Shown here in pieces: positions 4,096-48,276 of a stretch of DNA of 55,372 bases. Position 1 is the first letter of the stretch. Each line of letters opens with the position of its first letter. This DNA is from Burkholderiales bacterium (GTDB lineage Bacteria; Pseudomonadota; Gammaproteobacteria; Burkholderiales; Burkholderiaceae_C), in contig JANOLA010000171.1 of NCBI GenBank assembly GCA_031419535.1, forward strand, positions 1 to 55,372, given 5' to 3'. Position numbers and translations under genes: made by a program. The notes beneath the pieces were generated by a model. It saw nothing but the letters and a program-made list of their open reading frames with translations, ran no database searches and was not told the DNA's origin.

Positions 4096-4309
4096 GAGCC
4101 TGCTCGATCGCGCGCGCATCGCGTTTGGCGCGCTGCGCGTCGAGGTGCAGCGCCGCAGCTGCGCAACGGAACCGCGCAATCCGAACAGCCGGGGATTTAC
4201 AGCGCAACTGTGCCGATTGCCGGGCACCGCCCTGACCACAATGGTGCGCACCATCGGTCGGGCAAAGTCCATTCGGGCTGGCCCCGCGCCGCGCGGGGAA
4301 ATCTAAATC

Positions 4310-9156
<4,847 letters not shown>

Positions 9157-9160
<4 letters not shown>

Positions 9161-10179
9161 GCGCGACCGGCACCGCCGATTCGCCCGGACCCGCCGACGC
9201 GGCACCGGCCACCGCGTCGGGCATGCTCGCTGACGCGCTGGAACCGGGCAGCCAACGCCCGCCGAAGCTGCTGATCGTCGACGACCAGTCGCTCAACGTT
9301 CGGGCGCTGTACGAGTGTTTCGCCGCCGACCATCAAGTCTACATGGCCACCCGCGGCGAGCAGGCACTGCGGGTGTGCGCCGACCAGCAGCCCGACCTGG
9401 TGTTGCTGGACGTCGAGATGCCGGGAATGGACGGCTACGAAGTTTGCGCGCACTTGAAAGCCAACGCGGCGACGCGCGACGTGCCGGTGATCTTCGTCAC
9501 TGCGCACCGCGACGAGCACTTCGAAGCGCGCGGTCTGGGCGCCGGTGCGGTGGACCTCATCACCAAACCGTTCAATCCCGCGATCGTGCGCACACGCGTG
9601 CGAACCCATGTCATGCTCAAGGCTCAGGGCGACCTGCTGCGCCGCTGGGCCTACATCGATGGCCTGACCGGGGTGCACAACCGGCGCAGCTTCGACGAAC
9701 GCCTGGCCGCTGAATGGGGCCGCGCGTCGCGCAACGGCACGCCGCTGAGCGTGGTGTTGTCGGACGTCGACTTCTTCAAACGCTACAACGACCGTTACGG
9801 CCACCAGGCCGGCGACGAATGCCTGCGCCGCGTCGCCACCGCGCTCAATGCCGCCTTGCGGCGGCCCGGCGACTTGCTGGCACGTTACGGCGGCGAAGAG
9901 TTCGCCTGTCTGTTGCCCGACACCGGCTTGGCCGGCGCCATGCAAGTCGCACGGCAGCTCGGCCAACAGGTTTTTGCCCAGCAGATAGCGCACGCCGACT
10001 CCACGGCCGCGCCGGTGTTGACGGTCAGTCTGGGCGTGTGCAGCAAGGCCGCCGACGTTACCGGAAGTGCTACCGGCAGCGCCGCCGAACTGCTGCGCGT
10101 CGCCGACGTTCAGCTCTACACCGCCAAAGCCGCCGGGCGCCACCAGGCCTGCGGCGTGGAACTGCCTTTCAGCTTCTGA
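9157..10179 (+). CDS. response regulator-diguanylate cyclase (REC-GGDEF, GGEEF active site, RxxD I-site)
   Basis: The ATG overlaps the kinase stop (ATGA at 9157-9160). REC motifs are LLIVDD and LLDVEMPGMDG. GGDEF motifs are DGLTGVHNRR and RYGGEEF, with RPGD five residues upstream. Confidence 0.95.
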
Positions 10180-10190
10180 GCGACCAGCGC

Positions 10191-12170
10191 TCAAACGATC
10201 AGGTCATCCAGCCCGGTGGGCGCGAAGTCGGCTCCGCCGCTCGGCGCCTGCGCCAGCGGCAGCGTCACGTGAAACACGGTGCCGCCTTCGGCCGGGCACT
10301 CGAAGGCGATGCGCCCGCGCATGCGCTCGACCAGTGCGCGCGTGATCGGCAGCCCCAGGCCGCTGCCGCCGTGCGAACGCGCGTCGCTGGCGTCGGCCTG
10401 GGCGAATTTTTCGAACACGCGGGGCCGGAAGTCGATGGGGATTCCTGGGCCCTTGTCGATCACCGCGACCGTACAGGTCGTCTCGGCGCGGCTCAAATGC
10501 ACCTCCACCGCACTGCCCGCGGGCGAGAACTTGATCGCGTTGGACACCAGGTTGCCCATCACCTGTGCCATGCGCCGCGGATCGACATTCACCCAGACTG
10601 CGGAACTCTGGCGTGGCATCGTCAACTGCACCTGGTACAGGCGCGCGAAGCCGAGCGTGCTGCGCAAGTGGTCGCGCAGCAGCTTGACCAGGTCCACCGT
10701 TTCGAGCTGCATCACCAACTGCCCGGTCTGCATCTTTTCGAGGTCGAGGATGTCGTTCACCAGTTCGACCAGGCGCTCGCAGTTGCGCGATGCCATCACC
10801 ACCAGGCGCTGCGCGGGCTCGGGCAGCGCGCCGCTGCTGCCGTCGGCGAGCAGCGCGAGCGCGCCGCGAATGCTGGTGAGCGGCGTGCGCAATTCGTGGC
10901 TCACGACGGAAACGAAGTTCTGTTTCATGCGTTCGATGCGGCGTTGTTCACCCAGGTCGCGCAACACGCAGATGTGCAGGCGGCGCCGCGCGTCCTGCAC
11001 GACACGGCAAGTGGCTTCGAGCGGAAAGGCCTCGCCGTCGAGCCGGTAGGCGTCGATCGTGAAGTGCTGCACCGCGCCGGGCTCGTTGCCGTTGTCGCGC
11101 AGCAGGCCGCCGAGCTCGGGCACCAGGTCGATCACCGGCCGGCCCAGCGTCTTGTCGGCGACGCAGCGAAAAATCGCCTCGGCGGCGGGGTTGAAGGTGA
11201 GGATCACGCCGAGCCGGTCGAACGTGACGACCCCGTCGGGAATCGCTTCGAGTACGGCGCTGATGCGCGACTGCGAGTCGCGCAGCGCCTGTTCGGTGCG
11301 GCTGCGCTGCTCCACCTCGCGTTGCAACTGCTCGTTCGAGTTCGACAGGCGGCGCGTCGCGCCACGCAAGTTGAGCAGGCCGAACAGGCCGATCGCCAGG
11401 GTCGCCAACGCGGTTCCGACGAGCAGTGCCGACGTGCGGGTGCGCGTCGCGCCGTCGTCGGCGACGTGCCGGTCGAGTGCTGCGCGCTGCGCCTGCCCGA
11501 GTTCGTGCAGCAGCGTCTGCGCTGTGCCATGCAGGGCCTGCGCGCGTGCCGCGAGGGCGGCGGCCTGGGTGTCGTCCAGGCGGGCCGTGCCGGCGCACGC
11601 CGCAGCGACCGGCCGCGCCACACCGGCTTGCAATTCGCGCTGCAACTGAGCGAGCCGCGCCACGCGCCGCAGTTGTGGTGCGGCGTTTTGTTCCGGGTCG
11701 GCCAGTCGTGTCAGCTCGGAGAGCCGGTTCAGCGCCGGCGTGTCGGGCGCCGCGGTGGCACCCGGCGCACCCGCGCCAGCAGGCGCCACCGCAGTGCGCG
11801 GCGCCCCGCTGCGCACGCCCACCGCGCACAGCGGCACCTGCGCGTCATTCGCGAAGGCTTGCTCGACGCGCGCGATTTGTTCCAGCACTTCCAACGTGTG
11901 CACGCGCCAGCGCTGCGCCTCGAGCAGCGCGCCGACGTTGCGGGCGCTGATCGCGAACAGCAGCAAGACGCACAGCGCGAGGATCGATGTCGCGAACAGC
12001 AGGCGGTTCTCGAGCCGCCAGCGGCGCCGCGAGGCCGGCCACGCAAACGGCCAGCGCGCGCGACCGGTGTCTCCCTCGCTCACGGTTGTACCTTCGTGCT
12101 GCGCATTGCGGGACTCGCCCTGGTCCACGCGAGTGGACCCTTCGGGTCCCAGGCGGCCGGGCAGGCTCAT
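10191..12170 (-). CDS. membrane sensor histidine kinase (TM - periplasmic CHASE3-like region - TM - coiled coil - PAS - HisKA - HATPase)
   Basis: Internal ATG of track ORF 10191..13553. It overlaps the GT2 stop as ATGA at 12167-12170. Motifs are the H-box SHELRTPLTSIRG and GGSGLGLPITRALV. Confidence 0.9.
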   Translation of the reverse strand: MSLPGRLGPEGSTRVDQGESRNAQHEGTTVSEGDTGRARWPFAWPASRRRWRLENRLLFATSILALCVLLLFAISARNVGALLEAQRWRVHTLEVLEQIARVEQAFANDAQVPLCAVGVRSGAPRTAVAPAGAGAPGATAAPDTPALNRLSELTRLADPEQNAAPQLRRVARLAQLQRELQAGVARPVAAACAGTARLDDTQAAALAARAQALHGTAQTLLHELGQAQRAALDRHVADDGATRTRTSALLVGTALATLAIGLFGLLNLRGATRRLSNSNEQLQREVEQRSRTEQALRDSQSRISAVLEAIPDGVVTFDRLGVILTFNPAAEAIFRCVADKTLGRPVIDLVPELGGLLRDNGNEPGAVQHFTIDAYRLDGEAFPLEATCRVVQDARRRLHICVLRDLGEQRRIERMKQNFVSVVSHELRTPLTSIRGALALLADGSSGALPEPAQRLVVMASRNCERLVELVNDILDLEKMQTGQLVMQLETVDLVKLLRDHLRSTLGFARLYQVQLTMPRQSSAVWVNVDPRRMAQVMGNLVSNAIKFSPAGSAVEVHLSRAETTCTVAVIDKGPGIPIDFRPRVFEKFAQADASDARSHGGSGLGLPITRALVERMRGRIAFECPAEGGTVFHVTLPLAQAPSGGADFAPTGLDDLIV

Positions 12171-13612
12171 GGCTTGCCCTTGGGTGCTTGCCAGCTCGCG
12201 GTGCGCGTCATCTCGCCCCACTGGCCCGGCCGCCCGCGCAGCCATTCGAACGTGCCGACGATGCGCCAGCACAGCGTGAGTTGGCGGTAGCCCAGGTTTT
12301 CGACGAGCATCGCGGCACACAGCGACACCAAGTGGCCGAGGCCCGGGTAGATGTGGAACGAGATCTCTTCGAGCAGCAACGCCATTGCCGACAGCATCAG
12401 CGCCAGGCCCACCGCGAGCAACACGAATGTCAGGCACACCGACCACGACACGACGCCCGCCGCCGCGCCGGCGAGCAGCAGCGCGAACCCGACCACTTCG
12501 ACGACCGGCCCGAGCGCCTCGAACAACAGCATCGCCGGAAACGCAAGCCATCCCACCGCGCCGCCGCGGCGGTGGAACAGCAGCTTGCGGTTGCCCCACA
12601 GGCTTTCGAGCAGTCCGCGCTGCCAGCGTTTGCGCTGGTTCTTCAGCACCTTCAGGCTCTCCGGCGCCTCGGTCCAGCACACCGGGTCGGCGAGGAACAC
12701 GATGCGGTAAGGCCGCCGCGCGTTGCGGTGGTGCAGGTGCAGCCGCGCGATCAATTCCATGTCTTCGCCGATCGTCGCCGCGCGGTAGCCGCCCGCCTCG
12801 ACGACGGCGCTGCGCCGAAACACGCCGAACGCGCCGGAGACGATGAGCAAGGCATTCAACGGCGACCAGCCGACCCGGCCGAACAGGAACGCGCGCAGGT
12901 ACTCGACGATCTGAACCCGCGCCAGCCAACTGCGCGGCATGCCCACGCTTTCGAGGAATCCGCTCGCGACGCGGCATCCGTTGGCGATGCGCACCGTGCC
13001 GCCGCTGGCGATCACGCTCGCGTCTTCGAGGAACGGCCGCACCACGCGGCGCAGGCTGTCCGATTGCAGGATCGAATCGGCGTCGACCGCGCAAAACAGT
13101 GGGTGGCGCGACGCGTTGATGCCGGCGTTCAACGCGTCGGCCTTGCCGCCATTGGCCTTGTCCACGACGCGCAGGTTCGGGTGCGTGGGCGAGCGGTAGA
13201 TCGCGTGCACCGTCGCTACCGGCAGCGCGATCCGGTAGGCCTCGGGAAATTCGACCAGACCGAACTCGTCTTTCAGCACCTGCAGCGTGGCGTCTTTCGA
13301 GCCGTCGTTGATGACGATCACTTCGAACGCCGGGTAGTCCAGGCTCAGCATCGAGCGCACCGAGGTCGCGATCGTCGCGGCTTCGTTGTAGGCAGGCGCG
13401 AGCACGCTGATCGGTGGCTCCAGGCCCGACGCGTACTGAGGCAGGCGCGCCGCCAGGCGCGCCGGGCTGTCGCGGTGAATCGCGAGCAGCGCCACCAGGT
13501 TGAGCAAGAAGTAGGTGCCGTTCAGCGCGACGAAGTAGCCCAGGAACAGCCACTGCAACACGACGAATGCGTCGTGCCAGGTGAGTGCGCTCAAAGTCGC
13601 CATGGCCGTCAT
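12167..13612 (-). CDS. processive family-2 glycosyltransferase (PgaC/IcaA/cellulose-synthase-like membrane synthase)
   Basis: N-terminal TM helices followed by VLAPAYNEA, VINDGSKD, DADS, GEDMEL and QRKRWQRG, then several C-terminal TM helices. Start set at ATG 13612; ATG 13603 is an alternative. The track's TTG at 13669 lies inside a palindrome. Confidence 0.9.
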   Translation of the reverse strand: MTAMATLSALTWHDAFVVLQWLFLGYFVALNGTYFLLNLVALLAIHRDSPARLAARLPQYASGLEPPISVLAPAYNEAATIATSVRSMLSLDYPAFEVIVINDGSKDATLQVLKDEFGLVEFPEAYRIALPVATVHAIYRSPTHPNLRVVDKANGGKADALNAGINASRHPLFCAVDADSILQSDSLRRVVRPFLEDASVIASGGTVRIANGCRVASGFLESVGMPRSWLARVQIVEYLRAFLFGRVGWSPLNALLIVSGAFGVFRRSAVVEAGGYRAATIGEDMELIARLHLHHRNARRPYRIVFLADPVCWTEAPESLKVLKNQRKRWQRGLLESLWGNRKLLFHRRGGAVGWLAFPAMLLFEALGPVVEVVGFALLLAGAAAGVVSWSVCLTFVLLAVGLALMLSAMALLLEEISFHIYPGLGHLVSLCAAMLVENLGYRQLTLCWRIVGTFEWLRGRPGQWGEMTRTASWQAPKGKP

Positions 13613-13628
13613 TGCGGGGCTCGGGCTC

Positions 13629-13721
13629 TCAAGGAAACGCCGGGCCGCCCCAAGTTTCCTTGACCCCAAGGGCCACGAAGGGGCCCCTTCGTGGCCCTTG
13701 GGGCGGACGACGTATGTCGTC
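13629..13721 (-). promoter_or_regulatory. intercistronic triple-hairpin RNA element between the HEAT and GT2 genes
   Basis: Three adjacent inverted repeats. The first has 10-bp arms at 13629-13638 and 13654-13663. The second is the 40-nt palindrome at 13664-13703. The third has 6-bp arms at 13706-13711 and 13716-13721. No U-tract follows any of them. Confidence 0.6.
13664..13703. repeat. perfect 40-nt palindrome CCCCAAGGGCCACGAAGGGG|CCCCTTCGTGGCCCTTGGGG
   Basis: All 20 base pairs verified position by position. The flanking bases at 13663 and 13704 do not pair. Confidence 0.95.
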
Positions 13722-13736
13722 GGCCTGGGGGCGCTC

Positions 13737-14792
13737 TCATGCCATTTCGCGCTCGATCATCGCCTGCCCGAGCACGTCGCGCGCGTAGCGGTCGGTCAGG
13801 GCCTCGCGCAACTCGAGCGCGGCCGGGCGCGTCAAACCCGGCGTGCACAGCAAGGCCTGGGCGGCGCGGTAGCGCACCCACCATTGCGGGTCGCAGAGCA
13901 GCGTCAGCAGCAGCGGCTTGTCGGCCGGCGTGCCGAAGCGCGCCAACGCCGCCGCCGCCTGCGAGCGCACCCACCACACCGGGTGCTGCGCGAGCTGGCG
14001 CACGCGCGGCAGTGCGGCGGGCGTCTGCACGTGCTGCAGACACATCGACAGCAGTTCGGTGTGGTCGCTGCGCATGAGCAGGCCGAGCAAGGTGGGCGAC
14101 GCGCGCACCGAATCGACGGCGGCGAGCAGCCGCACCAGGCGCACTTGCTGCGTGGCGTCGGCAGCGAGCAGGCGTTCGCGCAGCGGATCGAACAGGTGCT
14201 GGGCGCCGGCCTCGCGAAGCAGCAGTGCCAGGCGCGCCATCGGCCATTCCGGGCGCCGCGCGATCTCAACCAGCACCGGCACCGCGGCCCGCGCCGGGTC
14301 GATTTGCAGCAGCGTACGCGCAGCCGACAGGCTGAGGTAGGGCCGCGGATCGCCGAGCAGCGCGTGCACCGCGTCCCAGTCGCTGGGCTGTGCCAGATGG
14401 CCAAGCGTCACCAAGCCGAGCCACTGGCGTTCGCGGTCGCGGCGCACGAGCCAGCGCCGCGCCAGCGCGTCCAGGCCGAGCAGGTTCAAGACCACCCGCA
14501 GCCGGTCGTGCGACGGGCCGCGCAGGCTTTCGGCGATCTGGTTCCACAGCAACAGCAGCACCGGCCGTTCGCCGCGGCGCAGCAGCGGGAACGGTGGGTC
14601 TTCGCCCATCGCGTGGCGCAGCAACGCCGGGCGCCAGCGCGCAATCGTCGCGGCGGCGGCGCGTTCGCGCCAGCGCATTGCCAGGCGCATCAGCGCGACG
14701 AGCACGATCAAGCCGAACGTCAGCGCGAGCGAGGCCAAGCCGAGCCCGAAGGCGAGCTGCTGCGCGATGTCAGTGCTGGTATCGAACGCCAA
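13737..14792 (-). CDS. single-pass membrane protein with cytoplasmic HEAT (PBS-lyase-type) repeat domain
   Basis: A TM helix (LAFGLGLASLALTFGLIVLVAL) is followed by a basic segment (MRLAMRWRER), which puts the C-terminus in the cytoplasm. Repeats carry WWVR....AA.AL signatures. Start uncertain: TTG 14792 is chosen, with TTG 14738 or ATG 14690 possible. The track's ATG at 15056 would overlap the barrel gene by 286 nt. Confidence 0.75.
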   Translation of the reverse strand: MAFDTSTDIAQQLAFGLGLASLALTFGLIVLVALMRLAMRWRERAAAATIARWRPALLRHAMGEDPPFPLLRRGERPVLLLLWNQIAESLRGPSHDRLRVVLNLLGLDALARRWLVRRDRERQWLGLVTLGHLAQPSDWDAVHALLGDPRPYLSLSAARTLLQIDPARAAVPVLVEIARRPEWPMARLALLLREAGAQHLFDPLRERLLAADATQQVRLVRLLAAVDSVRASPTLLGLLMRSDHTELLSMCLQHVQTPAALPRVRQLAQHPVWWVRSQAAAALARFGTPADKPLLLTLLCDPQWWVRYRAAQALLCTPGLTRPAALELREALTDRYARDVLGQAMIEREMA

Positions 14793-15567
14793 TGCGCAAC
14801 CCGTAACGTTCGTAAAGCTCGCCTTGGCGGTGCCCCGCCGCCTCGCCACTGATCGACCAGTTCGGTGCCCAGGCGTAGCTCGCCTTGAGCGCGGCACCGC
14901 GCACCGAACTCGAGACCAAGCCGCGCCCGGGAAGGTTCTCGAGCTCGCGCCCGAAGGCGAGCAAGCCGCCGATGCTGAGCGCGTCACTGGCGTACCAGTC
15001 CAGTCGCCACACCTGGGCTGAGCTGACACCGCCGCCGTCCAGTCGCGTCGCCGCACCGGTCCAGGCGAATCGCCAGGGGCCGAGGTAGTGCTCGGCCTGA
15101 GCCTGTGCAGTCGCGTTGCCCTGCGTCAGGCCTGGATTGCGGTACAGCGTGCGGCCCGCGCCCAGGGCCAGGTTCCAGCCCGCGACACCCTCGCGCCAGA
15201 CGCGGCCACGCCATTGCCACTGCGGCAGCACGCGGTGCGTATCGCTCGCAGCAACTTCCGCCTCGGCGCGCCAAAACGGCGCGAGCGGCAGCGCCGCGCC
15301 CGCTTCAGCCTGCCGGTCGGCCAAGTCGAAACGCTCGGTGCGGCGCAGCGTGCCGTTGGCGGACCCTCCGGCGGGGCCTCGCCACAACGCGGAGAGCTCG
15401 GTGTTGCGCCAATCGGAGAGGCCGGCGCTGAGATTCTCAACGGTCTGCGCCGCCTCGAAGGCCAACGGCCCCGCGAGCGCGCCGCCGGCGCAGGCGGCGA
15501 GGCTGAGGCCGACGCCGATGCCGATGCCGACGCGCAGCGCGGCAGCTCTGCGCTGCAACCGCTTCAT
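14770..15567 (-). CDS. YaiO-like outer-membrane beta-barrel protein (signal peptide with LAAC lipobox-like site)
   Basis: Internal ATG at 15567 overlaps the regulator stop (ATGA). The 265-aa length, signal peptide MKRLQRRAAALRVGIGIGVGLSLAAC and alternating beta-strand pattern to the C-terminus support a barrel. The YaiO assignment is from recollection of the family's size and profile and needs an HMM check. Confidence 0.65.
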   Translation of the reverse strand: MKRLQRRAAALRVGIGIGVGLSLAACAGGALAGPLAFEAAQTVENLSAGLSDWRNTELSALWRGPAGGSANGTLRRTERFDLADRQAEAGAALPLAPFWRAEAEVAASDTHRVLPQWQWRGRVWREGVAGWNLALGAGRTLYRNPGLTQGNATAQAQAEHYLGPWRFAWTGAATRLDGGGVSSAQVWRLDWYASDALSIGGLLAFGRELENLPGRGLVSSSVRGAALKASYAWAPNWSISGEAAGHRQGELYERYGLRIGVRYQH

Positions 15568-15938
15568 GCCGAGGCCGCCAACAGCTGGCGCACGCGGGCC
15601 ATCAGCTCTTGCGGCTGAAACGGCTTGACGACGTAGCCGTTGCTGCCGGAATCGAGCGCGCGCACGATGTCGGGCTCTTGCGATTTGGCGCTGAGCATCA
15701 GCACCGGCACCTGCGCCCAAGCCGGTTGGGCGCGCAGCAAGGCGATCAACTCAAATCCGTCCTTGTAGGGCAGCATCAGGTCCATGATCACCAGCACCGG
15801 CACCGGACCGCCAACGATGCGGGCCTGCGCGGCATGGCCGTCGCGGCAGATCTGCACCGTGTGCCCCTCGCGCTGCATCATGAATTCGAGCAGCTCGGCA
15901 ATGCTTTCATCGTCTTCGACGATCAGGACTTGGGGCAT
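15564..15938 (-). CDS. stand-alone receiver (REC-only) response regulator
   Basis: Internal ATG at 15938 (MPQVLIVEDDES), phospho-acceptor context VIMDLMLPYKDG, then LSAKS and YVVKPF. There is no output domain. Confidence 0.9.
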   Translation of the reverse strand: MPQVLIVEDDESIAELLEFMMQREGHTVQICRDGHAAQARIVGGPVPVLVIMDLMLPYKDGFELIALLRAQPAWAQVPVLMLSAKSQEPDIVRALDSGSNGYVVKPFQPQELMARVRQLLAASA

Positions 15939-16115
15939 CGGGGCAGGCGGCTGCGAATGGGGGCAGAGCATAACCAATGTGCCGGTCTGCCAATGGGTCG
16001 ATAAACGCTGCCGCATGGCGCTACCAGTTGTGAGTTGTGCACGACGCGGCGAGGCCCGCGGACTCGATGCAGGGCCGAAAATCCTGGGGTCTTGAACCCG
16101 TGCGAGGAATTTCGA
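15939..16115. promoter_or_regulatory. divergent promoter region between the RR-led operon and the lipoprotein gene
   Basis: 177-nt spacer between two divergently oriented start codons. No specific boxes identified. Confidence 0.35.
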
Positions 16116-16796
16116 ATGGCGAATCGTTCGGTAGTGGCCACTCTCTCGATTTGTGTGCTTTCGCTGACCCTGCTGGGCGGGTGTACCGCGCTCAGCGGCG
16201 AAGGACACTTGCTCACTGAAGACGCGCGGCTCGCGGCCAACGTGCGCAGTTGCTGCAACAGCCCGAGCGAACTGCTGCGGCGCCAGCCGGCCGAGGTGGC
16301 GGCGAGCCGACCGGCGCTGCTGTGGTTTGCGGCGAGCACGCCGCATTTCGACTTCGGCAACGGCTTGGCGCCTTTCACCGTGTTCCAGCTCAACGGCCCG
16401 GCAGCCACGGCCCAGGTCGAGCTGCGCTCGCCGATGCGTTTGCGCGGTTGGGCGTATGGGGGCGACGGCAAGGCGCACTACGCCGACGCGACCGCGGTGT
16501 TCTTCGACGCCAACGGCAACCCGCTGCCGGCGCAAACCATCGAGCGCGCCCAGCGCGACGATGCCGCCGGCGTCGCCGCGCTGTTTCAGACAGTCCTGGT
16601 GCCCACAGCGGCGGCGTACCTCATCGTCACGTCGAATCCGCGGAGCAACGGCTCGAGCGAGGCCAACGCCCCGCTCGGCCCACCCGCCCAGCCAGGAGTC
16701 GTTGGCTCGGGCCCGTTGATTCGCTCGGGAGGCATGTTCGCCCTGGGCTACCGGCTGGCGACTTACGGTCCGGTGCAGGTTCGCCTGGTGGAATAG
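16116..16796 (+). CDS. hypothetical lipoprotein
   Basis: Internal ATG at 16116 gives the signal peptide MANRSVVATLSICVLSLTLLGGC with a lipobox. The mature part is beta-rich. No confident family. Confidence 0.7.
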   Translation: MANRSVVATLSICVLSLTLLGGCTALSGEGHLLTEDARLAANVRSCCNSPSELLRRQPAEVAASRPALLWFAASTPHFDFGNGLAPFTVFQLNGPAATAQVELRSPMRLRGWAYGGDGKAHYADATAVFFDANGNPLPAQTIERAQRDDAAGVAALFQTVLVPTAAAYLIVTSNPRSNGSSEANAPLGPPAQPGVVGSGPLIRSGGMFALGYRLATYGPVQVRLVE

Positions 16797-16880: not shown

Positions 16881-17693
16881 ATGACCCCGGAGTTCACCCC
16901 CGCCATCAGCCTGCTCGCGGAGCTGGACTTGCTCAGCATCGGCGTCGCCGGCCGCGTTGCCCACGTGCGCCTGAACCGCCCCGCCAAACGCAACGCGCTC
17001 AACGACGCGCTGATCGCGCAGCTCCACACCTGCTTCATCAACCTGCCGGCTTCAGTGAATGCGGCGGTGTTGAGCGGAGCGGGCGAACACTTTTGCGCCG
17101 GACTTGACTTGTCCGAGCTCACCGACCGAAGCATCAGCGAAGGCATGCTGCACTCGCGCACCTGGCACGCGACGATGGACGCGATCCAGTTCGTCCGGGT
17201 GCCGGTGGTGGCGGTGCTGCATGGCGCGGTGGTCGGCGGCGGCCTGGAAGTGGCGAGCAGTTGCCACATCCGGGTGGCAGAAGCGAGCACGTTTTACGGC
17301 TTGCCGGAAGGCCAGCGCGGCCTCTTCGTCGGCGGCGGCGGCTCGGCGCGCTTGCCGCGGCTGTGCGGCGTGGCGACGATGACCGACATGATGCTCACCG
17401 GCCGCGTGCTCGACGCGCAAGAAGGCCTGCAGCGCGGGCTGGCGCAGTACGTGGTGGCCGACGGCGCGGGTTTCGCGAAAGCGGTGGAACTCGCCGCGCG
17501 AATCGCCGGCAACGCAGCGTTGTCGACCTTCGCGGTGCTGCAAGCGCTGCCACGCATCGCCGACCTGTCGCAAAGCGACGGATTGTTCGTCGAGTCGCTG
17601 ATGGCGGCGATCGCCCAGGGTGACGACGCGGCCAAGCAGCGCATGCGCGACTTTCTCGAAAAACGCGCCGGCAAAGTCGGCAAGTCGACATGA
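16881..17693 (+). CDS. enoyl-CoA hydratase/isomerase (crotonase) family protein
   Basis: Motifs V.LNRP.KRNAL, SGAG.HFCAGLDL and HGAVVGGGLE.A..CH.R. Confidence 0.9.
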   Translation: MTPEFTPAISLLAELDLLSIGVAGRVAHVRLNRPAKRNALNDALIAQLHTCFINLPASVNAAVLSGAGEHFCAGLDLSELTDRSISEGMLHSRTWHATMDAIQFVRVPVVAVLHGAVVGGGLEVASSCHIRVAEASTFYGLPEGQRGLFVGGGGSARLPRLCGVATMTDMMLTGRVLDAQEGLQRGLAQYVVADGAGFAKAVELAARIAGNAALSTFAVLQALPRIADLSQSDGLFVESLMAAIAQGDDAAKQRMRDFLEKRAGKVGKST

Positions 17694-19561
17694 TCGACAT
17701 GAAATCTGGCCCGCGCTACCGCGAGCTGGCGCTCGGTGGTTCACTCGAAGCGAACTTCGTGGCGCGTGCCGATGGCACGACGCTGGTCACGTCTTGCGAG
17801 CCGCTGCAACCCTACCCGCGCCGGCTGACGGACCGGCTGCTGCACTGGGCCGAAGTGGACCCCGATCACACCCTGGCGGCGCAGCGCGATCCGAGCGGGC
17901 CCTGGCGGCGCCTCAGCTACGCGCAGGCACTGCACGGCGCGCGCGGCATTGCGCAGGCGCTGCTCGACATGGGCCTGTCGGCGCAACGCCCGGTGGCGAT
18001 CCTGTCCGACAACGACCTCGAGCACCTGCTGCTGTCGCTCGGCGCCATGCTCGCGGGTGTGCCGTTCGCGCCGATCTCGCCGGCCTATTCGACGCTGTCG
18101 TTAGACCATGGCAAGTTGCGCCACATCCTGAACCTGTTGACGCCGGGCCTGGTGTTCGCGTCCAACGCATCGCTCTACGGCCGGGCAATCGGCGCGGCGG
18201 TTCCGGCGGCGACGCCGGTGGTGTTGACGCAAGGCACGCTCGACGGCCGCGCCACGCGCAGCTTCGCCGATCTCGCCGCGACCGTGGCCACTTTAGCGGT
18301 GGACGCCGCGCATGAGGCGGTAGGCCCGGAGACGATCGCCAAATTCCTGTTCACGTCGGGGTCCACCCAGTTGCCCAAGGGCGTGATCAATACGCAGCGC
18401 ATGTGGTGCGCGAACCAGCAACAGATCGTGCAGTGTTTTCCGGAACTGGGCCGCACTCGCCCGGTGCTGGTGGACTGGCTGCCGTGGAACCACACCTTCG
18501 GCGGCAACCACAACGTCGGCCTGACGATCTACAACGGCGGCACCCTGTACATCGACGAGGGCAAGCCCGCGCCGCAGCTGATCGGCCAGACGCTGCGCAA
18601 TCTTCGCGAGATTTCGCCGACGGTCTACTTCAATGTGCCCAAGGGCTTCGAGGAAATCGCGAACGCGATGGAGCACGACGCGCAATTGCGCGAGACGCTG
18701 TTCGCGCGGGTGAAGATGTTCTTCTTCGCTGGCGCGGGCCTGGCGCAGCCGGTGTGGGACAAGCTCGATGCGCTGGGTGTTGCCACCGGCGGCGAGCGGA
18801 TTCGCATGCTCACGGGCCTGGGCATGACGGAAACCGCGCCGTTCGCCATCTGCGCGAACGCGCGCGACGTGAAGGCTGGCCACATCGGCCTGCCCGCGCC
18901 GGGCATCGAGCTCAAGCTCGTGCCGCATGGTGACAAGGTCGGCGACAAGGTCGAAGTGCGCTACCGCGGCCCGAACGTCACGCCGGGCTATTGGCGCGCA
19001 CCCGAGCAGACCGCGACGGCGTTCGACGCCGAAGGCTTTTATTGCAGCGGCGATGCGGTGAAACCGATCGCGCCCGCCCACCCCAGCCGGGGATTCATGT
19101 TTGACGGGCGCATCGCAGAAGACTTCAAGCTCGCGACCGGTACCTTCGTGTCGGTCGGGCCGCTGCGCGCGAAGGTTGTCGCCCTGGGCGACCCCTGCGT
19201 GCAAGACGCGGTGGTGACGGGAATCGACCGCAACGAGATCGGCCTGCTGATCTTTCCGCGGCTCGACGCCTGCCGGGCACTCGCTGGCTTGGCGGCAGGG
19301 GCGGCACCGGACCAGGTGCTGGCGGCCAGCGCGGTGCGCGATTTTTTCCAGCGCCTGGTTGATTCGCTGTGGGCCGGCGGCACAGGCAGCGCGACACGGG
19401 TCGCGCGCGCGCTGGTGCTCGCCGAGCCGGCGAGCATCGACCGCGGCGAAGTCACGGACAAAGGCTCGATCAACCAGCGCGCCGTGCTGACGCACCGCGA
19501 CGCCGTTGTGCGCCAGCTCTACGACGCCGGCACGCCCGGCGTGTTGCTGGCGCGGCGCTGA
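17690..19561 (+). CDS. AMP-dependent acyl-CoA synthetase (feruloyl-CoA-synthase-like)
   Basis: ATGA overlap with the crotonase stop. 623 aa with FTSGSTQLPKGV and GLGMTETAP motifs. The N-terminus resembles annotated feruloyl-CoA synthases of Burkholderiales. Confidence 0.9.
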   Translation: MIDMKSGPRYRELALGGSLEANFVARADGTTLVTSCEPLQPYPRRLTDRLLHWAEVDPDHTLAAQRDPSGPWRRLSYAQALHGARGIAQALLDMGLSAQRPVAILSDNDLEHLLLSLGAMLAGVPFAPISPAYSTLSLDHGKLRHILNLLTPGLVFASNASLYGRAIGAAVPAATPVVLTQGTLDGRATRSFADLAATVATLAVDAAHEAVGPETIAKFLFTSGSTQLPKGVINTQRMWCANQQQIVQCFPELGRTRPVLVDWLPWNHTFGGNHNVGLTIYNGGTLYIDEGKPAPQLIGQTLRNLREISPTVYFNVPKGFEEIANAMEHDAQLRETLFARVKMFFFAGAGLAQPVWDKLDALGVATGGERIRMLTGLGMTETAPFAICANARDVKAGHIGLPAPGIELKLVPHGDKVGDKVEVRYRGPNVTPGYWRAPEQTATAFDAEGFYCSGDAVKPIAPAHPSRGFMFDGRIAEDFKLATGTFVSVGPLRAKVVALGDPCVQDAVVTGIDRNEIGLLIFPRLDACRALAGLAAGAAPDQVLAASAVRDFFQRLVDSLWAGGTGSATRVARALVLAEPASIDRGEVTDKGSINQRAVLTHRDAVVRQLYDAGTPGVLLARR

Positions 19562-45348: not shown

Positions 45349-48276
<2,928 letters not shown>

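Follow-up and report, generated by a model that had tools for sequence, protein, structure and literature searches.

A receiver-YaiO-HEAT-GT2-kinase operon from a Burkholderiales bacterium is a candidate undescribed synthase-dependent exopolysaccharide system

Does the compact operon at positions 10191-15938 of a 55,372-nucleotide stretch of Burkholderiales DNA (the window) encode a polysaccharide machine that is already known, or one that has not yet been described? All five minus-strand open reading frames listed by an initial annotation are present at the coordinates it gave, in the order REC, YaiO, HEAT, GT2 and HK (Table 1). That annotation had read them as a synthase, a HEAT co-factor, an outer-membrane barrel and a two-component switch; the reading is supported and its checkable predictions held, with function remaining an inference. 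As far as function can be inferred, the module's most likely role is to produce an unknown polysaccharide and export it to the cell surface, with two-component (phosphorylation) control. The literature that we searched yielded no description of the module and no experiment on any family member.

Table 1. Features of the operon and its immediate surroundings in the window
Feature	Position	Strand	Basis
Convergent REC-GGDEF diguanylate cyclase gene; possible accessory input, not core	9157-10179	+	GGDEF 6.4e-44, Response_reg
Membrane sensor histidine kinase (HK), 659 aa	10191-12170	-	Pfam PAS, HisKA, HATPase_c
Processive membrane GT2 synthase, 481 aa, distant PgaC/IcaA relative	12167-13612	-	Glyco_tranf_2_3, Glycos_transf_2, Chitin_synth_2
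Hairpin-rich HEAT-GT2 intergenic spacer with perfect 19-bp stem	13613-13736	-	RNA folding
Single-pass inner-membrane protein, HEAT/ARM alpha-solenoid, 351 aa, TTG start	13737-14792	-	HEAT_2 9.4e-16
YaiO-family outer-membrane beta-barrel, 265 aa, N-terminal signal peptide	14770-15567	-	TIGR04390, PF19413
Stand-alone receiver (REC) response regulator, 124 aa, first operon gene	15564-15938	-	Pfam Response_reg 2.4e-25
Divergent intergenic region upstream of REC, presumed promoter region	15939-16115		Position only

The five-gene set is translationally coupled, co-translation being indicated by its stop/start overlaps. Both ATGA overlaps noted previously, at 15564-15567 (REC stop, YaiO start) and 12167-12170 (GT2 stop, HK start), are seen in the sequence, and the one thought probable at 14770-14792 is borne out, since HEAT starts with a TTG at 14792, 23 nt of it overlapping the end of YaiO; in a relative at 94% identity, an independent gene call likewise puts the HEAT protein at 351 aa. 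Tight coupling had been claimed for all five genes, which holds at these three junctions but not between HEAT and GT2, where a 124-nt spacer intervenes. This spacer folds with an RNA minimum free energy of -76.8 kcal/mol (z = -6.4 against shuffles), has no second copy in the window and is missing from the 94%-identical relative, whose HEAT-GT2 gap is 19 nt. A sigma-70-like consensus was sought in the region upstream of REC (15939-16115) and was not found.

As anticipated, the gene set recurs strongly in distant genomes. We identified 82 related loci from at least eight phyla, their hosts including beta- and gammaproteobacteria, Nitrospira, Acidobacteriota, Gemmatimonadota, Myxococcota, Bacteroidota and others; Massilia, Stutzerimonas stutzeri, Stenotrophomonas and Halomonas are cultivable carriers. 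Of the 73 loci whose flanks are long enough, 65 have HEAT directly upstream of GT2 and eight have it elsewhere in the cluster; a REC gene is found upstream in 53/67 loci, and 36 of the 51 loci with complete flanks contain a YaiO barrel. All-against-all clustering of the locus flanks revealed no further widely shared gene. By this comparison of sequences the gene set is not a chance neighbourhood, and its core is REC-HEAT-GT2, with YaiO facultative. REC is absent from Stenotrophomonas-type loci and so is not essential to the synthase. A membrane protein of the sulfatase family, a type involved in periplasmic decoration of glycans, stands beside the module in eight loci, mostly of Xanthomonadales type.

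The synthase carries the motifs NDGS, DAD (DxD), GEDMEL and QRKRW (QRxRW), all invariant across its family, together with an N-terminal transmembrane helix and a C-terminal hydrophobic block (residues 353-421). Its nearest characterised relative is PgaC of the PgaABCD/HmsHFRS systems of E. coli and Yersinia (poly-beta-1,6-GlcNAc), which likewise has N- and C-terminal membrane helices, and the operon could accordingly be a divergent PNAG system of the Pga/Hms/Ica type, a variant for a known polymer in which GT2 makes poly-beta-1,6-GlcNAc and HEAT and YaiO replace PgaD and PgaA. PgaC_IcaA is indeed the top NCBIfam match (1.5e-37), and GT2 shares 26% identity with E. coli PgaC (E 3e-30; hhalign probability 99.8%) and is fully colinear with it, both membrane regions included, with the blocks GGKADALN, VSGAFGVFRR, GEDMEL and QRKRWQRG in register. 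However, the 129.6-bit score is far under the 422.3-bit equivalog cut-off, and GT2 falls outside the PgaC, BcsA, NodC and NfrB equivalog models, as the initial annotation had supposed. The family also differs from PgaC by an insertion of ~35 residues in the GT-A domain, and its homologues, at least 46% identical across phyla, form a clade of their own. The PilZ, PgaB, PgaD, BcsB and Wza genes reported as missing were not found in the operon or among the 28 window ORFs scanned, in which no other polysaccharide-pathway gene was detected; no MshEN partner was found either. PgaB, the PNAG deacetylase/hydrolase, is needed for PNAG export in E. coli. We hold a PNAG machine to be unlikely here, although it deserves to be kept in mind, and the earlier remark that the layout is unlike PNAG is correct for the system but not for the synthase fold.

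The comparison with PgaABCD extends to the partners. In both, a small membrane co-subunit gene adjoins the synthase, but that of the window encodes a 351-aa, one-TM HEAT solenoid whereas PgaD has two transmembrane helices. A single hydrophobic helix (residues 12-35) lies between an acidic N-terminus and an Arg-rich segment, from which an N-out/C-in topology with a cytoplasmic solenoid is predicted, on the positive-inside rule alone. The AlphaFold2 model (pLDDT 94) comprises a long helix (9-61) followed by ~nine helical hairpins, a confident prediction of a membrane-anchored alpha-solenoid, and its Foldseek matches are importin-alpha, alphaRep and the PP2A-A subunit; importin-alpha and PP2A-A are protein-docking scaffolds. 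At E<=1e-30 the family falls into 378 clusters of 50% identity, and all are ~350 aa long. A seeming fusion of HEAT to GT2 in a single protein, which would have been proof that the two are physically coupled, was rejected as a frameshift artefact.

The proposed YaiO-like outer-membrane barrel was confirmed at the level of profile and fold: it matches TIGR04390 (2e-28, 99.9 bits against a cut-off of 32, residues 38-263) and PF19413 (3.5e-9, 37.3 bits against 23.9), and its AlphaFold2 model, a confident one (pLDDT 86.5), has 14 strands over residues 35-264, with the 14-strand porins OmpG (2x9k), CymA and FadL as top structural matches. The LAAC lipobox that had been pointed out is present, but lipidation is doubtful, because the Cys is not kept in more distant homologues, which conserve an AxA|GP signal-peptidase-I site in its place. 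PgaA is also an outer-membrane barrel, of 16 strands rather than 14, and the YaiO barrel is fused to TPRs in many relatives of the module; such TPR-YaiO fusions, seen in Stenotrophomonas, Nitrospira and other loci, have the architecture of the known polysaccharide export porins PgaA, BcsC and NfrA. TIGR03939 was matched only weakly, and only by the TPR part of a relative. The window YaiO has no TPR domain and no periplasmic scaffold is encoded in the window, which leaves the crossing of the periplasm by a chain unexplained. Porins for PNAG, cellulose and alginate have 16-18 strands; the YaiO barrel is smaller, and an open pore has not been shown.

A link between yaiO and the GT2 gene yaiP of E. 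coli had been given as adjacency, which is right in essence: they do share a cluster but are not immediate neighbours, the order on one strand being yaiS-yaiP-yaiX-yaiO (yaiX disrupted by IS2 in K-12). This uncharacterised cluster thus pairs a YaiO-family barrel with a PgaC-like GT2 on the same strand, and by analogy it lends independent support to YaiO barrels serving GT2 synthases. It differs in having no HEAT protein, REC or kinase, its partners being a deacetylase (yaiS) and an acyltransferase (yaiX); YaiP, of 398 aa, shares only 25% identity with the window GT2 (E 1e-8), in an alignment confined to the GT domain, and the relationship between the two YaiO proteins shows only in profile comparison.

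Two further systems resemble the module in part. NfrBA(C), the E. coli phage N4 receptor system (poly-ManNAc; annotated in RefSeq as an exopolysaccharide secretion system), also combines a GT2 synthase with an outer-membrane protein, but NfrB bears an MshEN c-di-GMP domain at its C-terminus and its alignment to the window GT2 covers only ~100 N-terminal residues (E 2e-4), and NfrA does not match TIGR04390. BcsA-BcsB-BcsC likewise has a processive GT2 with QxxRW, a TPR-barrel export porin as in the relatives of the window module, and post-translational activation by a cytoplasmic regulatory module, the last being only proposed for the window system. Unlike it, the window system lacks a PilZ domain and BcsB, and BcsA models match its GT2 only locally, around QxxRW.

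Taking the observed domains, motifs, predicted folds and synteny together, we consider that the operon probably encodes an as yet undescribed type of synthase-dependent exopolysaccharide machine that is self-contained; its polymer and mechanism, its topology and subunit contacts and the direction of its regulation are inferred, not shown. GT2 would act as a PgaC-like processive synthase-translocase that builds a beta-linked homoglycan from a common UDP-sugar, UDP-GlcNAc being the leading guess by similarity to PgaC; the C-terminal transmembrane helices of GT2 itself would be the path by which the chain is threaded across the inner membrane. The HEAT protein may be an obligatory co-subunit, its TM helix packed on the synthase and its solenoid in the cytoplasm, filling the place that PgaD, a PilZ domain or Alg44 takes in other systems. 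The 14-strand YaiO barrel would form the outer-membrane exit, to which other lineages add a periplasmic TPR scaffold of the PgaA, BcsC or NfrA type.

In regulation, this proposed machine has a stand-alone receiver and a kinase built into the operon in place of c-di-GMP binding by PgaCD. A Pfam scan found no output or other domain in the REC protein, and D9, the phospho-acceptor D53 and K105 are kept in 51-56 of 57 REC homologues taken from upstream of HEAT/GT2. The kinase has transmembrane helices at 53-85 and 246-268, on either side of a ~160-aa periplasmic segment. We propose that the receiver is phosphorylated on D53 by the operon kinase, or by other kinases in other genomes, and then turns synthesis on or off through contact with the HEAT solenoid or the synthase, so that gating would be by phosphorylation and not through a recognisable c-di-GMP receptor. 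The switch had been called dedicated: the kinase is present in the window, but a kinase gene lies immediately 3' of GT2 in only 11 of 76 loci, and one occurs anywhere in the locus in 25/51. If the proposal is true, the module represents a new variant of synthase-dependent exopolysaccharide secretion, phosphorylation-switched and without a recognisable c-di-GMP receptor.

The module might also be the Xanthomonas xagABCD biofilm-polysaccharide system under another name, and hence already known genetically. That locus is likewise a GT2-centred biofilm operon whose polymer is still unidentified (PMC3609779, PMC8042644), and Xanthomonadales carry the REC-less form of the window module: the Stenotrophomonas operon consists of HEAT, GT2, TPR-YaiO and a sulfatase-like gene, a four-gene form that recalls the four-gene xag operon headed by a non-GT gene, and Dyella, Rhodanobacter and Lysobacter were counted as the same type by HEAT hits. 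Against this, the described partners differ: the reported xagBCD-like products of iron oxidisers, namely a ~690-aa GT2, a ~500-aa domainless protein, a ~330-aa GH10-like protein and a BcsB-like partner, match none of the window partners (PMC4643136, PMC8250860). A published KEGG-based table gives no COG for XagA (PMC9040811), whereas a COG is usual for HEAT proteins. Among the top 120 matches of the Stenotrophomonas HEAT protein are Stenotrophomonas, Dyella, Rhodanobacter and Lysobacter but no Xanthomonas-named protein, and when peptides encoded by the published Xoc xag primers were compared with the loci, nothing but noise resulted. This evidence is indirect, without a direct sequence comparison, but argues against identity with xagABCD, which we judge improbable.

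Equally hard to sustain is a GT2 that makes a periplasmic or membrane-bound glycan or glycolipid (e.g., an osmoregulated glucan or lipid-linked sugar) beside an unrelated co-transcribed porin: YaiO is absent from 15 of the 51 fully flanked loci, the window has no periplasmic scaffold, a 14-strand barrel without TPRs is unlike known export porins, and glycolipids are the products of some GT2 enzymes with comparable Pfam hits (HpnI and MGlcDAG-type, among the weak-score NCBIfam relatives), yet QRxRW, GED and C-terminal transmembrane helices are the signature of a processive synthase-translocase, YaiO overlaps both its neighbours and recurs in 56 of all 82 related loci, its TPR fusions resemble PgaA and BcsC, and E. 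coli has a second, independent GT2-YaiO cluster.

For the undescribed exopolysaccharide machine that we favour, c-di-GMP control through an unrecognised site is not excluded, as 13 of 82 related loci, and the window too, have GGDEF genes next to the module or fused with it. The convergent REC-GGDEF arrangement is also found in a close relative (L084), and six of the 13 GGDEF-bearing loci carry a REC-GGDEF-REC fusion directly upstream of HEAT.

The contig around 10191-15938 has a G+C content of 68-70%, and on its minus strand we found the five open reading frames exactly at the coordinates that the initial annotation had assigned to an exopolysaccharide operon. Profile searches upheld each of the five domain assignments (see the table). 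The ATGA overlaps at the REC/YaiO and GT2/HK junctions are both present, and the overlap suspected between HEAT and YaiO is borne out: TTG 14792, the one plausible start codon of HEAT, gives a 23-nt overlap with the YaiO stop, and a separate gene call in L084, a close relative (94% identical), yields the same 351-aa HEAT product. The proposed tight coupling of all five genes holds for these overlaps but not for the HEAT/GT2 junction, where a spacer intervenes. Scans for sigma-70 promoters and intrinsic terminators returned nothing exceeding the shuffle background. The operon as first described is confirmed, and its reading as an exopolysaccharide system is supported to the extent that sequence evidence allows.

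Coordinates of the operon genes and of the related features discussed in the text
Feature	Location	Strand	Details
REC-only response regulator	15564-15938	minus	124 aa; Response_reg 2.4e-25
YaiO-family outer-membrane protein	14770-15567	minus	265 aa; TIGR04390 2e-28, 99.9 bits vs cut-off 32
HEAT-repeat protein	13737-14792	minus	351 aa; HEAT_2 9.4e-16
Family-2 glycosyltransferase (GT2)	12167-13612	minus	481 aa; profile search
Histidine kinase (HK)	10191-12170	minus	659 aa; PAS + HisKA + HATPase_c
HEAT-stop/GT2-start spacer	13613-13736	minus	124 nt; folds into three neighboring hairpins, one with a perfect 19-bp stem
Sulfatase/alkaline-phosphatase-family membrane protein	L041 10796-14103; L002 10307-12778 (related loci)		~800 aa; PF00884 8.4e-33
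E. coli K-12 cluster	L083, NC_000913.3 380069-384616	one strand	yaiS deacetylase, yaiP PgaC-like GT2, yaiX acyltransferase (IS2-split), yaiO

The GT2 comes from a family that is both very large and unusually well conserved: at least 7998 of 8000 scored candidates matched at E<=1e-20, and identity was at least 61% in all of the best 120 matches. Scanning one genome per species, we obtained 80 loci, in which GT2 identities were 46-64%. Their sources were Burkholderiales (Massilia, Polaromonas), Gallionella, Methylophilaceae, Stenotrophomonas, Luteimonas, Stutzerimonas, Halomonas, Rheinheimera, Nitrospira, Acidobacteriota, Gemmatimonadota, Myxococcota, Bacteroidota, a 'Cyanobacteria' MAG, Nitrospinales and Marinimicrobia. 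We then counted gene positions by iterated HMMER searches of the five window proteins against all six-frame ORFs of the loci. Recurrence of the gene set in related genomes, on which the initial annotation had made its proposal depend, extends to distant ones: HEAT lies directly 5' of GT2 in 65 of the 73 loci with enough upstream sequence, and elsewhere in the cluster in the remaining eight, mostly Nitrospira. REC was found upstream on the same strand in 53/67 loci, and a YaiO homologue in 36 of the 51 loci flanked by 6 kb or more on each side (56 of 82 related loci overall). A kinase is immediately 3' of GT2 in only 11/76 loci and anywhere in the locus in 25/51. According to these counts the conserved core is therefore REC-HEAT-GT2, with YaiO as a frequent fourth member and the kinase as a variable one; YaiO and REC are each absent from some lineages. 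The closest relative, L084, matches the window order gene for gene, including a convergent REC-GGDEF gene and a CHASE hybrid kinase. All-against-all clustering of the flanking ORFs revealed no further widely common family; one apparent candidate, present in 48 loci, consisted of ORFs antisense to REC and HEAT, which are artefacts of the high GC content. Gene order offers strong evidence for a widespread module that has apparently gone unstudied.

The enzyme at the center of this module carries the hallmarks of a polysaccharide synthase. The UDP-binding NDGS, DxD, GED and QRxRW motifs are invariant across the family (N102-D103, D177/D179, G282-E283-D284 and Q326-R327-R329-W330 in 21 members), as is the C-terminal tail (W457, W465-G466, M468, R470). 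Hydropathy analysis placed one helix at the N-terminus and a hydrophobic block at 353-421, and the protein satisfies the general definition of a synthase as a processive inner-membrane GT2 with such motifs and post-catalytic transmembrane helices. Its best curated-family match is PgaC/IcaA (TIGR03937). E. coli PgaC itself is 26% identical in an alignment of 409 residues that starts at the N-terminal helix and runs through to the C-terminal membrane region, and profile comparison gives a probability of 99.8%. By sequence, the PDB returned only local matches, to cellulose and chondroitin synthases. From its motifs, membrane helices and colinearity with PgaC, GT2 would act as a processive synthase-translocase, an activity that is inferred. 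A beta-linked homopolymer is the likeliest product, and if the PgaC relationship is any guide, GlcNAc would be the best, albeit weakly supported, guess for the monomer.

Directly upstream, the HEAT protein forms a separate and uniform family, with 378 clusters at 50% identity (E<=1e-30), nearly all of ~350 aa and matching end to end. Hydropathy indicates a single transmembrane helix with an acidic N-terminus and six arginines just past the helix, and this charge distribution therefore suggests an N-out/C-in orientation; the cytoplasmic placement of the solenoid proposed earlier fits the Arg-rich segment by the positive-inside rule only. The AlphaFold2 model (60 homologues, pLDDT 94) has a continuous helix at 9-61, predicted to form a membrane anchor plus stalk, followed by about nine helical hairpins. 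Its structural neighbors, importin-alpha, designed alphaRep/armadillo proteins and the PP2A A subunit, are protein-binding scaffolds without catalytic precedent, and a sequence search of the PDB returned designed alphaRep proteins only. The near-universal adjacency to GT2 and the frequent stop/start overlap of the two genes, for example in the related locus L001, would suit an obligatory co-subunit of the synthase, with physical contact inferred. One database protein that resembled a HEAT-GT2 'Rosetta-stone' fusion (P0056, 817 aa; L001 8001-10454) proved to be the product of a one-base frameshift: three-frame translation of L001 recovered a normal HEAT C-terminus (…DIVEHALAEEHA) and stop in another frame, overlapping the GT2 start, and P0056 is therefore an artefact that provides no evidence of physical coupling.

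The YaiO assignment withstood the barrel check on which the initial annotation had let it stand or fall, scoring above family cut-offs (PF19413 37.3 bits vs 23.9; the TIGR04390 match spans residues 38-263 of 265) and yielding a predicted 14-strand barrel. In the AlphaFold2 model (23 homologues, pLDDT 86.5), a hydrophobic N-terminal helix at 4-26 precedes 14 antiparallel strands that span residues 35-264 and are joined by short loops, so that a signal peptide and a closed barrel are both supported by predicted structure. Foldseek aligned this model to porins, with the best TM-scores for 14-strand OmpG and for CymA and FadL; a sequence search of the PDB gave no match. The LAAC lipobox noted earlier is present as a motif, but its Cys is not kept in more distant homologues, which keep an AxA|GP cleavage site instead. 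Encoded in the operon with overlapping stops, YaiO meets the expectation of a dedicated outer-membrane porin accompanying the synthase. The expectation of a periplasmic TPR scaffold is not met by the window protein, which is a barrel only. Known export porins, PgaA, BcsC and NfrA, have a TPR-plus-barrel architecture. In Nitrospira loci the YaiO barrel terminates a TPR protein of 700-800 aa, and the TPR part of the Stenotrophomonas TPR-YaiO weakly resembles the PgaA and BcsC TPRs. Together with the family membership and the predicted barrel, these TPR fusions and an independent GT2-YaiO cluster in E. coli suggest that YaiO may serve as the outer-membrane exit, an export role that remains inferred. 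Two points weaken the export reading: the predicted barrel would be smaller than known polysaccharide porins, and no periplasmic scaffold is encoded in the window.

In E. coli K-12, yaiO and yaiP do share a same-strand cluster, but they are not neighbors as the initial annotation had them: yaiX lies between the two. The window GT2 is only 25% identical to YaiP. The yaiS-yaiP-yaiX-yaiO cluster looks like a cryptic, IS-inactivated polysaccharide locus. In the literature we searched, the main present-day use of yaiO is in PCR, as a marker.

Gram-negative bacteria build biofilm matrix chiefly through synthase-dependent systems (cellulose, PNAG, alginate, Pel, Nfr). In its workings the module would resemble the Pga, Bcs, Nfr and alginate systems, yet it fails the membership tests of each, and its GT2 scores below the PgaC, BcsA and NodC cut-offs. 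Against the PgaC equivalog it reaches 129.6 bits (cut-off 422.3), and PgaB deacetylase/hydrolase, PgaD and PgaA were not found in the operon or among the 28 window ORFs scanned. For cellulose synthase, GT2 scores 51.7 bits against TIGR03030 (cut-off 699) and 33.3 bits against PRK11498 (cut-off 992) and has no PilZ domain, and the earlier claim that PilZ and BcsB are lacking held for the operon and the same 28 ORFs. As for NfrAB, GT2 is not NfrB-like: it lacks the C-terminal MshEN of NfrB and aligns with NfrB at the N-terminus only. NfrA has no match to the YaiO model TIGR04390, and the idea that NfrA is a YaiO-type barrel was rejected. Sugar-nucleotide, flippase, Wza/Wzc, PilZ, BcsB and PgaB genes were likewise missing from the window ORFs profile-scanned, and the module is therefore self-contained, presumably drawing on housekeeping UDP-sugar.

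We also considered xagABCD, a Xanthomonas biofilm locus whose polymer 'remains to be established' (PMC8042644; PMC3609779). Clusters described as of the xagBCD type encode a ~690-aa GT2 together with a 500-aa protein lacking domains, a protein resembling GH10 and a partner resembling BcsB (PMC4643136; PMC8250860), and no COG is given for XagA (PMC9040811). Among the best matches to a Stenotrophomonas HEAT protein there was no named Xanthomonas protein, and peptides from six-frame translation of the published Xoc xagA-D primers matched the loci only as low-complexity noise. This evidence is indirect, without a direct sequence comparison, and argues that Xag is a different system from the module. 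Neither a polysaccharide-porin role for the YaiO family nor a HEAT protein partnering a PgaC-like synthase is the subject of any paper retrieved by full-text literature searches.

For the control of the module, the two-component switch proposed earlier has the expected parts: HisKA (6.4e-19) and HATPase_c (5.7e-28) in the kinase, and in the receiver the acidic pocket, Asp and Lys (D9, the phospho-acceptor D53 and K105 conserved in 51-56 of 57 homologues). REC lacks any output domain, and in most lineages its gene opens the module. Hydropathy of the kinase indicates two helices around a ~160-aa periplasmic segment; a CHASE3 sensor match was not significant (E = 0.68). To our knowledge, all well-studied synthase-dependent systems are switched by c-di-GMP. 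Profile searches of the five operon proteins detected no c-di-GMP receptor module (PilZ, PgaCD interface, Alg44, PelD, MshEN). Control by c-di-GMP through an unrecognized site is not excluded, because GGDEF genes recur as neighbors, in 13/82 related loci and, in the window, convergent to the operon. Some loci fuse a diguanylate cyclase to the receiver of the module: the REC homologue forms the C-terminal end of an (Hpt-)REC-GGDEF-REC protein in Gemmatimonadota, Myxococcota, Marinimicrobia and certain unclassified MAGs. ORFs of this type lie directly 5' of HEAT (L065, L070, L073, L075, L078, L080 and L082), and the L075 protein retains GGEEF.

The window neighbor at 4310-10179 on the plus strand encodes a 1616-aa hybrid kinase (CHASE, PAS, HisKA, REC, Hpt) and a REC-GGDEF diguanylate cyclase with a 4-nt overlap. 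The pair converges on HK, with the two stop codons 11 nt apart, recurs in L084, and may provide a second signalling input, through c-di-GMP, to the polysaccharide module.

Taken together, the data support a synthase-dependent exopolysaccharide secretion module with unusual partners and control logic, whose function, polymer and phospho-switch are all inferred from sequence. Phosphorylated REC, charged by the operon kinase or by others, might act on the complex through protein-protein contact, a mechanism that is likewise inferred. A bolder proposal, which we consider less likely than not and offer only tentatively, is that the module represents an unrecognized, widespread class of synthase machines: phosphorylated single-domain REC would dock on the HEAT solenoid of an obligatory co-subunit and open a PgaC-like synthase, gating would depend on phosphorylation rather than c-di-GMP, and the polymer would leave through a 14-strand YaiO, the smallest polysaccharide porin known, giving the orphan E. 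coli YaiO its first function. The module occurs in lineages from soil, water and wastewater, among them Nitrospira, Massilia, Stenotrophomonas, Stutzerimonas and Acidobacteriota. If its inferred role in polysaccharide secretion holds, it would add a new matrix polymer pathway, a HEAT solenoid as a new type of synthase co-subunit, a two-component signal that controls an enzyme directly, and a first functional context for the YaiO family, E. coli yaiO included. Several carriers are cultivable, and the hypothesis is therefore directly testable.

The architecture of the module varies among loci. The Stenotrophomonas-type order is HEAT, GT2, TPR-YaiO, a 793-aa sulfatase-family membrane protein and a 309-aa secreted protein without a Pfam match, with no REC. 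One metagenomic locus combines REC, HEAT, GT2(-TPR, an apparent fusion, P0096), a sulfatase-like gene and TPR-YaiO. Sulfatase-family genes occur in eight loci, of the Xanthomonadales type and some others, and their product may add phosphoglycerol or phosphoethanolamine to the polymer. The HEAT-GT2 spacer of the window folds with a minimum free energy of -76.8 kcal/mol (z = -6.4), and no T-run follows its hairpins. Its sequence occurs once in the window and is missing from L084, where the HEAT-GT2 gap is 19 nt; it could represent a REP-like insertion, or a site of mRNA processing or stability that uncouples GT2 translation.

Profile scans assigned 20 further window ORFs to ordinary metabolism, transport and repair, such as RraA-like, PrpD, Ldh_2, EamA, CoA-transferase, flavin oxidoreductases, ABC transporter genes, a UvrA-like ATPase and an M48 peptidase. 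Divergent from the operon, the plus-strand ORF at 16116-16796 has a lipoprotein-like signal (…LTLLGGC) and no Pfam match; L084 has a 226-aa domain-less gene at this position, and the ORF is not conserved in other loci. At 45349-48273 (plus strand), the UvrA-like ATPase (975 aa; UvrA_inter, UvrA_DNA-bind) lies directly 3' of NMT1-type ABC transporter genes. At 16881-19561 (plus strand), an enoyl-CoA hydratase ORF (270 aa) overlaps an acyl-CoA synthetase-like ORF (623 aa) by 4 nt; its L084 counterpart (4159-6825) is a single 888-aa gene call with ECH and AMP-binding domains, reflecting either a fusion/fission event or a difference in gene calling.
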